The notes: generated by a model from the letters alone, not told the origin. DNA of 64,000 nt from Pseudovirgaria hyperparasitica (GCA_010093815.1 ML996568.1); one strand, 5' to 3'; counted from the first letter of the stretch, positions 10,277 through 12,506 are shown. A program made the numbers and translations.

Positions 10277-11204
10277 ATGCGACTCTTCCTCATTCGACAT
10301 GGAGAGACTGTCGATAACATTGCGCAGCTCTAGTAAGTGCCAGTACCAATCTAACGCTGATCTACTAACAAGGACTTACAGTGCTGGCAGTAGAGACTCA
10401 GAGCTCACCAACCACGGAGTCAGTCAAGCAACGCGCCTTGGTCAACATTTCAGGTCGACCGGCGTGAAGTTTACGCACATATTCTCTTCCCAACTTCAAA
10501 GGGCCTACAAGACTGCGGACATCGTTCGACAGGCTCAAAGCGGACCACTTGTATTACAATCGCCATTAATTGCGGAACAAGATTTTGGTTCATCAGAGGG
10601 AAAGTCATGGGCTAGTCGGGCATCTATTGATCCTGACATGAACGATCAGCCTGTAATACCGTCTGAATCCCGTGAATCTATGGAGTCTCGCGTCGACCAG
10701 TTTCTTGACTCTCATCTTGAGCCCATCATAGCACCAACCGACTCTACGGAGCAGATCATCGCCGTAGTCTCGCATGGGATCATTTTGGGGGTTTTATGGC
10801 GAAGAATTCTTCGGCGCCTTCCTCCCCAAAGTGTAACCCTGTCCCCTGAGATCGCCGCAACTAATGCCATGATCGTATTAGAACATCTTGGTCGATGGGG
10901 TAATACATGCTACCTTGAGCTTACTCTAACATCGAAGTCGGCGACTGGAGCGGGAATCGTCGCTATGACCACAAGCGGTACTCTAGCAGCTACCCTTCAG
11001 CCTATACCCAGAGATATGCAACCGGGCAATAACACAGCTTCACTCGTCAGTCATTTTGGTGAATTCACAACAACAATATCCCGAGTGAATGCTCGAGATC
11101 ACTTAAAGAGCCTCAAACGTACCGGTGGCGGCGTCGGAAGCGCCAAATACGACTCGAGCCAGCCCGGAATTGAAACGTTTTTCAAGAAACCTCGCAAAAC
11201 TTGA
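10277..11204 (+). CDS. Histidine phosphatase / phosphoglycerate mutase-family protein
   Basis: Exon 1 is MRLFLIRHGET (RHG motif), intron 10333-10381, then SSQLQRAYKTA, EQDFG and VVSHG. Confidence 0.9.
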
Positions 11205-11245
11205 ATCACTATCAACACACAGGTACGATCTTTCCTTACTATTCT

Positions 11246-11328
11246 CCAAATGATGAAACAACTTAATTCACAGACCTGTACTGAAATACTCATGTGGATC
11301 AAATTTTGTCCAACTGCTATCTGATATC
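11246..11328 (+). ncRNA. Box C/D snoRNA #1, dual guide (18S Gm1428-equivalent, snR56/SNORD25-like; LSU site equivalent to human 28S Cm2422)
   Basis: C box ATGATGA 11250-11256; guide TCACAGACCTGT 11268-11279; D' CTGA 11281-11284; C' ATGTGGA 11292-11298; guide GTCCAACTGCT 11308-11318; D CTGA 11321-11324. It lies inside an intron 11223-11386 (GTACGA...TGCTAAT...CAG). Confidence 0.85.
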
Positions 11329-11476
11329 GGCTACCGCATCATTATCATCGCACTGCGTACGACGTGTGAATGCTAATCATGGTCAGATATCTTGCCAATA
11401 TGTCGAGCTTACGTTCTAACACTAAATCCACAACTCCCTAAAGGTTCGTTTTATATCTCGCAAACCAATCTTTCCA

Positions 11477-11560
11477 CGACATGATGAAAAACTATCCATC
11501 ACAGACCTGTACCGAAAAAGTCATGTGGATACCATTTTTAAGCATAGTTCAGCTGATCTC
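11477..11560 (+). ncRNA. Box C/D snoRNA #2, dual guide (18S Gm1428-equivalent; 25S Am807-equivalent, snR39/snR59-like)
   Basis: C box ATGATGA 11481-11487; guide CATCACAGACCTGT 11497-11510; D' CCGA 11512-11515; C' ATGTGGA 11523-11529; guide GCATAGTTCA 11542-11551; D CTGA 11553-11556. It lies inside an intron 11444-11623 (GTTCGT...GCTAAC...TAG). Confidence 0.85.
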
Positions 11561-11906
11561 GCTTGTCAAACTATCTTTTGTGCTTCCAACTTGTGGATGA
11601 ACAAGGGCTAACACTTATCTTAGATCTACTAGTTGCAACAGCCACTCTTGTCGTAAGATACTGAGCGCGGAGTCTTGGTCTCGACGAGACTTCGAACTTC
11701 GAACTCCAGGCCTACGCCCCCGGATACCGAATTGAAGCTGCTTCAATTGTCACACGTGACATGTCGAAGCATCATCCTCTACTACCCATTTTCGTGAACG
11801 CCTTGATTGCTTGTTCCCGACATCCTTGGCGTGTGCGTCCATATCCTTGATTCCGTTATCGACATTCATGTCTGTCCCGTTCGTGACTCCAATCTTTCTT
11901 TGCACT

Positions 11907-12506
11907 TCAGGTCACACGCCCAACCATTGAAACTGTGGATCTTCCATCAACAGATGCCCATATTTCTGACTCTGGGCAGTGGTCTTTGATATTCCCCATC
12001 CCTCGTGCATTCAACTTTTCGATCTCTATTTCTTGTAGCTGTGCTCGGAGGTTCTTGGTGAGGCGAGCCCGACGCCGCTGGGCTTGTCTCTCTGGGCCAT
12101 CAGCATCCTGCTGGCTCTTTTTCTTGAAGGTGAAAGCCAGTTGATAGGTCAGGCGTATGGTGTTGAATATGGTACCAGCGTAAAGTATAGGTGCCGCTGT
12201 GTAGTAGATGCAAGTCCCGGCGATCAAATGGACACAGTCTCGAGATGGTTTGAGTCCAGACATAGTTGAACAGATCAGCTCCGTGTCTCTAGAAGCTAAA
12301 CTGTCTATATGTATATGTCTAATACCAATCAGTCTCGATGGCGATACCGATATGAGCTCTTCAAACCTACTGTTATAGATCAAACAACTGCAAATCCTCT
12401 CACCATTCCTCACAGAATCATTACGCAGACAAAAGAAAGGAGGGCTGTTGATAGAACGACAATGCCGATGTCCACGGACTACACACAAGCAAATAAACGT
12501 ACACAC
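11907..12506 (-). CDS. Possible hypothetical protein (structure uncertain)
   Basis: 199-codon ORF with a hydrophobic stretch followed by a basic coiled-coil-like segment (ERQAQRRRARLTKNLRAQLQEIEIEK). No family was recognised and the start is unclear. Confidence 0.3.
   Translation of the reverse strand: MCTFICLCVVRGHRHCRSINSPPFFCLRNDSVRNGERICSCLIYNSRFEELISVSPSRLIGIRHIHIDSLASRDTELICSTMSGLKPSRDCVHLIAGTCIYYTAAPILYAGTIFNTIRLTYQLAFTFKKKSQQDADGPERQAQRRRARLTKNLRAQLQEIEIEKLNARGMGNIKDHCPESEIWASVDGRSTVSMVGRVT

Follow-up and report, generated by a model that had tools for sequence, protein, structure and literature searches.

Two probable intron-encoded snR56-lineage snoRNAs with a common 18S guide and different predicted LSU guides in the 3′UTR of a PGAM-like gene of Pseudovirgaria hyperparasitica

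How does a locus come to hold two related small nucleolar RNAs (snoRNAs) that keep one guide in common and differ in the other? A 64,000-nt stretch of Pseudovirgaria hyperparasitica DNA (GCA_010093815.1 ML996568.1), here called the window, raises this question with two box C/D-like units that follow one another on the plus strand, each inside an intron of its own. Answering it depends on whether the units are genuine snoRNAs, which gene houses them, what they may guide and where the second one came from.

Unit 1 (11246–11326, +) and unit 2 (11477–11558, +) are each about 81 nt long, and direct reading places a C, D′, C′ and D box in both. In unit 1 these are ATGATGA (11250–11256), CTGA (11281–11284), TGTGGAT (11293–11299) and CTGA (11321–11324); in unit 2 they are ATGATGA (11481–11487), CCGA (11512–11515), TGTGGAT (11524–11530) and CTGA (11553–11556). 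Each unit has an RUGAUGA C box near its 5′ end and a CUGA D box near its 3′ end. A 69-nt direct repeat (74% identity) links the two, identity between them is 86% from the C box to the C′ box, and a composite snR56-type pattern (C box, common guide, D′ and C′) matches twice in the window against 0.00 matches expected from 100 shuffles. The initial annotation had described two paralogous units of about 80 nt with C, D′, C′ and D boxes, and the direct reading, the repeat and Rfam all bear this out. Among the metagenome matches listed, TGTGGAT serves as the C′ box in 78 of 113 homologous units and CCGA as the D′ box in 20 of 113, so the D′ box of unit 2 is a normal variant. Candidate terminal stems between the 20-nt flanks are weak, with only 2 bp (−1.2 kcal/mol) in unit 1 and 3 bp (−2.0 kcal/mol) in unit 2, and no clear external stem was seen in the MFE folds of the two introns. 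Tandem Repeats Finder returned no long-period repeat around the units or in L111, a metagenome locus with two copies that is described below.

Searching Rfam, a check suggested with the initial annotation, returned snR56 as the best family for both units at scores below the gathering cut-off. In a 651-base stretch, snR56 (RF01188) came top of 4,227 families for each, with 47.3 bits and E = 2.5e-5 for unit 1 (11246–11326) and 37.4 bits and E = 1.6e-3 for unit 2 (11477–11558). At gathering thresholds no Rfam family matched in the window, the snR56 cut-off of 54 bits lying above both units; when the whole window was searched, unit 1 alone fell below E 0.1 and unit 2 lay above it. A gathering score is a curated cut-off and no biological feature. 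Moreover, 14 metagenome loci with a PGAM-like host gene, searched at E <= 0.05, gave 11 snR56-type matches in 10 loci that also reached only 40.4–49.6 bits, which argues that the snR56 model under-scores this branch. No second snoRNA family was found in those 14 loci, where the other matches were overlapping snR61 matches on the same elements.

The members of RF01188, namely yeast snR56, SNORD25 (U25) and Neurospora crassa CD19, carry a D′ guide to the Gm1428-equivalent 18S G, as do units 1 and 2. In the accessible parts of the published tables, yeast snR56 and CD19 are listed with one target each, whereas each unit here has a second guide. Yeast snR39 and snR59 have a predicted target A in common with the D guide of unit 2 but no sequence homology to it, and unit 2 lies outside their family: of the 15 Rfam matches obtained with E values of 10 or less, none is to snR39, snR59, SNORD32 or SNORD51. 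We conclude that units 1 and 2 are genuine box C/D snoRNAs and that they fall in the snR56 lineage, within the ‘clan CD_19’ that unites snR52 and snR56.

The gene that houses them begins upstream on the same strand. A spliced open reading frame (10277..11204, +; exons 10277–10332 and 10382–11204) encodes a PGAM-like histidine phosphatase of 292 amino acids and ends in a TGA at 11202–11204. The protein is a branch-1 histidine phosphatase with an RHGE-type start (Pfam His_Phos_1, E = 5.7e-21), and its nearest Atlas clusters are of the PGAM family, most often from Ascomycota. Splicing was read from de Bruijn contigs of two runs, X1 and X2, from one sample of one study; the kind of run is not on record, and we take both to be RNA because the contigs are spliced. 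A joint 10332>10382 in the contigs removes a 49-nt coding intron (10333–10381, +). Beyond the stop codon, both runs contain two further joints: 11219>11384 skips 164 nt (GT..AG, cut +3), giving intron 1 (11223–11386, +; 5′ splice site GTACGA, AG at 11385–11386), and 11441>11622 skips 180 nt (GT..AG, cut +2), giving intron 2 (11444–11623, +; 5′ splice site GTTCGT, AG at 11622–11623). X2 record 5 and X1 record 4 each cover the 57-nt non-coding internal exon between them (11387–11443, +) and show it spliced at either end. The two introns and the exon proposed in the initial annotation are matched to the base by these joints, so its intronic placement of the units holds; that their host is the 3′UTR of a protein-coding gene had been overlooked.

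The 5′ splice site of intron 1 lies 18 nt past the host stop codon. X2 record 5 (2,650 nt) spans, without a gap, the coding exons upstream and the two snoRNA junctions; a contig spanning two genes does not in itself prove one transcript. Contig coverage is absent from 11479–11565 and only partial across intron 1, which has no bearing on snoRNA expression. Direct reading gives a branch motif in each intron, CTAAT at 11373–11377 (+) and CTAAC at 11608–11612 (+). From the end of the D box, the distance to this motif is 52 nt in unit 1 and 55 nt in unit 2, and the distance to the 3′ splice site is 62 nt and 67 nt, respectively. A D box about 50 nt from the branch point is optimal, and the spacing in both introns is what one would expect of an intronic snoRNA whose release depends on splicing. 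Both snoRNA introns therefore sit in the 3′UTR of the PGAM-like histidine-phosphatase gene, with one snoRNA in each.

The contigs also contain two features outside this arrangement. A 169-nt X1 contig (depth 108) joins the end of exon 1 to ~11274 (11217–11274, +) and then continues unspliced through the remainder of intron 1 into exon 2; with the cut at +5, the joint becomes GT..AG, its AG falling inside the D′ guide of unit 1. This would amount to a 51-nt mini-intron that removes the unit 1 C box, although the contig has 24 letters on its short side, is missing from X2 and may be an assembly artefact. Downstream, a convergent minus-strand gene (11907–12371) comprises a 118-aa open reading frame (11907–12263) and a 52-nt CT..AC intron (12319–12370; GT..AG on the minus strand). 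Contigs are continuous from the plus-strand host 3′UTR into this gene, and the transcripts appear to overlap tail to tail.

Predicted targets were sought in reference rDNA from 70 loci fetched with a standard LSU primer; these are eukaryotic contaminant contigs in prokaryotic assemblies and come from other organisms than this fungus. Rfam confirmed three of them (L048, L053 and L057) as eukaryotic SSU/5.8S/LSU. For every D′ and D box, we searched the preceding 20 nt for pairing in the D/D′+5 register and compared each guide with 2,000 shuffled versions, scoring the Watson–Crick run on one reference rDNA. Yeast numbering follows from position arithmetic and published site lists rather than from alignment to yeast rRNA. 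All four guides pair with eukaryotic rDNA in the +5 register, in runs that start at position 2 or 3.

On the D′ side, the guide of unit 1 (11268–11279, +) forms 12 Watson–Crick pairs with ACAGGTCTGTGA in the SSU rDNA, position 5 falling on the first G, a result reached by 4 of 2,000 shuffles. The corresponding guide of unit 2 (11497–11510, +) forms 14 pairs with ACAGGTCTGTGATG, which is ACAGGTCTGTGA plus TG, and addresses an identical site and the same 18S G (0 of 2,000 shuffles). In L048, 372 nt separate this G from the 3′ end of the SSU; if yeast 18S rRNA is 1,800 nt long, as we assume, that distance fits Gm1428. Pairings of 12 and 14 bp in the D′+5 register thus agree with the common 18S guide put forward in the initial annotation, and they support the G equivalent to yeast Gm1428 as the predicted target of both units. 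Since both carry a guide to it, the two would be redundant there, a situation paralleled by CD19 and CD41 of N. crassa.

On the D side, the guides differ. That of unit 1 (11307–11318, +) forms 12 Watson–Crick pairs with AGCAGTTGGACA in the LSU rDNA, with a C at position 5 (1 of 2,000 shuffles reaches this run); the C is LSU position 1496 in L048, 1490 in L053 and 1510 in L057. That of unit 2 (11542–11551, +) forms 10 pairs with TGAACTATGC and places the second A opposite position 5 (16 of 2,000 shuffles, or 0.8%); the A is LSU position 806 in L048, 800 in L053 and 819 in L057, and a G stands two bases upstream of it. The exact target sequences for the 18S G, the LSU C and the LSU A occur in 9 of 11, 6 of 11 and 14 of 18 of the rDNA loci that cover each site. 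The pairing supports, as the predicted target of the unit 1 D guide, the LSU C at the N. crassa 26S-Cm1489/human mgh28S-2409 site, the human guide being presumably SNORD5. For unit 2, it supports as predicted target the LSU A equivalent to yeast Am807, in keeping with the initial annotation: the match is 10 bp long, with the second A at position 5 and the G in place. A function for this guide is nonetheless the weakest link in the chain, given a 10-bp duplex and a shuffle frequency of 0.8%. The accessible part of the yeast site list gives 18S-Gm1428 with snR56, 25S-Gm805 with snR39b and 25S-Am807 with snR39 and snR59 (PMC5699541), and the G-x-A pattern at ~806 in the LSU fits the Gm805/Am807 pair of that list.

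Two further observations concern the rDNA loci and guides themselves. In six PGAM-hosted loci (L073, L087, L120, L136, L144 and L173), the LSU-C guides have CAACCGCT where most have CAACTGCT, and the rDNA locus L045 contains a AGCGGTTGG-type sequence that pairs in the LSU-C guide register. The two may represent guide–target covariation between guides and rRNA that are not matched by species. L057, for its part, contains a group I intron (L057:4418–4760; Rfam Intron_gpI, 109.5 bits) within its eukaryotic LSU rDNA; the contig is filed under a bacterial MAG and represents eukaryotic rDNA contamination of a prokaryotic bin.

Much of the guide content described above has published counterparts. In the accessible text of the N. 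crassa inventory (Liu et al. 2009, PMC2780460), CD19 guides 18S-Gm1423 through D′, with snR56 and U25 as homologues, and CD41 guides 18S-Gm1423 through D′ (12/0) together with 26S-Cm1489 through D (12/0; Table 1). For 26S-Cm1489, the table names U49 of Arabidopsis and mgh28S-2409 of human as homologues and leaves both yeasts without one. This agrees with the initial annotation, which had pointed the D guide of unit 1 to an LSU C for which it knew no S. cerevisiae guide. As far as that text describes it, CD41 matches unit 1 in both predicted targets and in the side that addresses each, with 12 bp apiece, and both snoRNAs are intron-encoded; the likeness is one of guide content. The CD41-type double guide is found in unit 1 only and not in unit 2. 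The accessible text leaves the host gene of CD41 unnamed, whereas that of unit 1 is the PGAM-like gene. It also places CD19 on chromosome III and CD41 on chromosome II, accepts several 10/0 guides, and lists 26S-Gm785 (snR39b) and 26S-Am797 (snR60) with no guide for the A between them.

The same inventory, as far as accessible, contains a possible trace of the host. Two orphan ‘H/ACA’ RNAs, ACA10 and ACA16, are placed in 3′UTRs on chromosome II, like CD41, and one of the two lies in the 3′UTR of a gene ‘similar to phosphoglycerate mutase’ (PMC2780460). ACA10 and ACA16 may both be pieces of this same conserved 3′UTR that hosts snoRNAs. In the window, a search of the downstream exon for an H/ACA-like RNA (11600–12350) gave no Rfam match up to E 1.

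Guide switching is likewise on record for this lineage. Canzler, Stadler & Schor (2018; PMC5824354) merged snR52 and snR56 into ‘clan CD_19’, and the accessible part of their paper describes several members per species and target switches, exactly the state seen in units 1 and 2. Replacement of a guide between paralogues, as the initial annotation proposed it, thus falls within behaviour already published for the clan, a precedent that the annotation had missed. Afu-200 of Aspergillus fumigatus, with guides to 18S Am415 and Gm1422 (PMC2377427, in part), and TRnc_2545 of Trichophyton rubrum, with guides to 18S Gm1389 and Am385 (PMC3890542, in part), resemble units 1 and 2 in combining the snR56-type 18S-Gm guide with a different second one, here to the snR52 site; their second guide addresses the 18S rRNA, whereas those in the window address the LSU. 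No Am807-type guide appears in the accessible portions of the tables for N. crassa (PMC2780460), A. fumigatus (PMC2377427) and T. rubrum (PMC3890542). Judged by these partly accessible sources, unit 1 has the published CD41 guide combination, and guide switching in the snR56 clan is already known. In the searchable literature we found a description neither of the guide pair of unit 2 nor of a PGAM-like 3′UTR as snoRNA host, although Section S9 of the PMC5824354 supplement may cover the guide pair, and that supplement may also treat the host.

We used the snR56-type pattern to scan metagenomes, which returned at least 112 loci with at least 113 units, at least 90 of them distinct. The D-side guides of 113 units among the matches listed were classed on the rDNA of L057: 35 address the LSU C site (unit 1 type), 19 an LSU U near position 1852 and 12 an 18S A near position 421 (Afu-200 type), while 8 gave single, scattered best matches and 39 had no match of at least 9 bp. 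The unit 2 D guide occurs in 0 of these 113 homologous units among the matches listed, and even an 8-nt core of it occurs nowhere in the 331,740 bases retrieved.

A PGAM-like homologue lies just upstream of the snoRNA, on the same strand, in at least 35 metagenome loci, where host protein identity is 29–45% over full-length matches. Among the matches listed, 26 of the 35 units that have a unit-1-type D guide lie in such PGAM-hosted loci, and 0 of the 12 units of the Afu-200-type class have a PGAM-like host. Of the 32 host loci examined, 31 have a candidate 5′ splice site after the stop codon and before the C box. Where the downstream sequence extends for 300 nt or more, as in 24 host loci among the matches listed, a second C/D unit was found only in L111. 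There, a repeat search identified a recent tandem duplication of a module of ~275 nt (L111:2337–2832), in which the snoRNA is 97% identical between copies and the adjoining intron and exon 89%; the copies are spaced 273–279 nt apart, and their D-side sequences are nearly alike and have no match of at least 9 bp on the reference rDNA. Two other loci (L076:1490–1800 and L178:70–390) contain tandem snR56-like units in adjacent short introns with a common 18S guide; their D-side sequences are related but different, and no PGAM-like gene was seen nearby.

Our preferred explanation, which we consider probably correct, is that the window contains two genuine intron-encoded snoRNAs of the snR56 lineage in the 3′UTR of a PGAM-like gene, with the targets predicted above and unit 2 as an extra copy. 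The ancestral state would have been one snR56-type snoRNA in an intron of a PGAM-like 3′UTR, most often with the LSU-C guide, a widely conserved arrangement that unit 1 would represent. Unit 2 would be a lineage-specific addition in which the 18S guide was retained while another D guide was gained. Because a module has been duplicated at this same host in L111, duplication together with the intron, followed by replacement of one guide, is the simplest account of how that came about. The initial annotation had proposed such a duplication, and L111 makes it plausible, although similarity between the two introns drops to background beyond the snoRNA core, only the core and the splice signals aligning.

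That lack of similarity in the flanks gives some standing to a different origin, which we think unlikely: with no local duplication of unit 1 and its intron, an older snR56 paralogue of the CD19 type or a retroposed copy may have entered an intron of the host 3′UTR, either one already there or a new one, and become unit 2. N. crassa has its two snR56-type genes on separate chromosomes, CD19 on III and CD41 on II (PMC2780460, in part). Unit 1 is the nearest neighbour of unit 2 only narrowly, at a core identity of 0.86, which is barely above the 0.84 to unrelated metagenome units. Several shared details nevertheless tie unit 2 to unit 1. The two are adjacent in the same host, they have the TCATGTGGAT C′ context in common, and in both GTAC precedes the D′ box, its A being found in only 8 of 113 homologues among the matches listed. 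The L111 locus, moreover, demonstrates that a module of intron and exon can be duplicated at this host.

Whatever the origin of unit 2, its D side raises the question of function. Unit 2 could be a redundant or decaying duplicate that serves at most the 18S guide, its 10-bp LSU match being coincidental, a reading that we judge rather unlikely. In its favour, the D pairing is limited to 10 bp and is equalled by 16 of 2,000 shuffles, the Rfam score of the unit is the lower of the two at 37.4 bits, its terminal stem is weak, and its D guide recurs in 0 of 113 homologues among the matches listed. Since 39 of those 113 have no D-side rDNA match of at least 9 bp, D-side ‘non-guides’ are also common in the lineage. 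The match, however, is in the correct register, at positions 2–11 from the D box, and the A on which it falls, at LSU 800–819, has a G two bases upstream, in the pattern of Gm805/Am807 (PMC5699541, in part). The accessible N. crassa table accepts guides of 10/0 (PMC2780460). Unit 2 also has intact C, C′ and D boxes, and its 18S guide pairs over 14 bp against 12 bp in unit 1. We find it very unlikely that the snoRNA introns belong instead to a separate non-coding transcript starting near the end of the phosphatase gene, as might be supposed from the non-coding UHG-like hosts of many N. crassa snoRNA clusters (PMC2780460, in part) and from contigs that show neither transcript starts nor a single transcript across genes: X2 record 5 links the coding exons to both snoRNA junctions without a break, no more than 18 nt separate the stop codon from the first 5′ splice site, and the order of gene then snoRNA on one strand persists in at least 35 loci whose proteins are 29–45% identical.

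The two RNAs would be made and act as follows. After splicing and debranching, exonucleases would trim each lariat back to the snoRNP, which would assemble on the C/D and C′/D′ motifs; fibrillarin would then methylate whichever rRNA nucleotide pairs with the guide base five positions upstream of D′ or D. Known working principles of snoRNAs are unaltered by units 1 and 2. We also entertain, as a speculative extension that we think improbable as it stands, that the 3′UTR intron is an ancient and widely conserved snoRNA cradle of ascomycetes in which the D guide is swapped in place again and again, the module having been duplicated here and an Am807-type guide gained. Were this true, the snR39/snR59 function of yeast would have been recreated in an unrelated snoRNA backbone. 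The second 3′UTR exon junction, which lies 75 nt past the host stop codon, could then make the host mRNA an NMD target and tie snoRNA output to its turnover.

What may be new here is the location of the introns in a PGAM-like 3′UTR, with the same host association in at least 35 metagenome loci, and the guide pair of unit 2, which 0 of 113 homologous units among the matches listed possess. For this fungus, the two units add two unannotated predicted guides of rRNA methylation. For the family, they would provide a natural example of target gain, in which a module was copied, one guide kept and the other replaced. Across hosts whose proteins are only 29–45% identical, an snR56-type snoRNA has been kept in a 3′UTR intron while its second guide varies, and the PGAM-like locus would offer a fixed genomic reference point from which to follow guide turnover among fungi.
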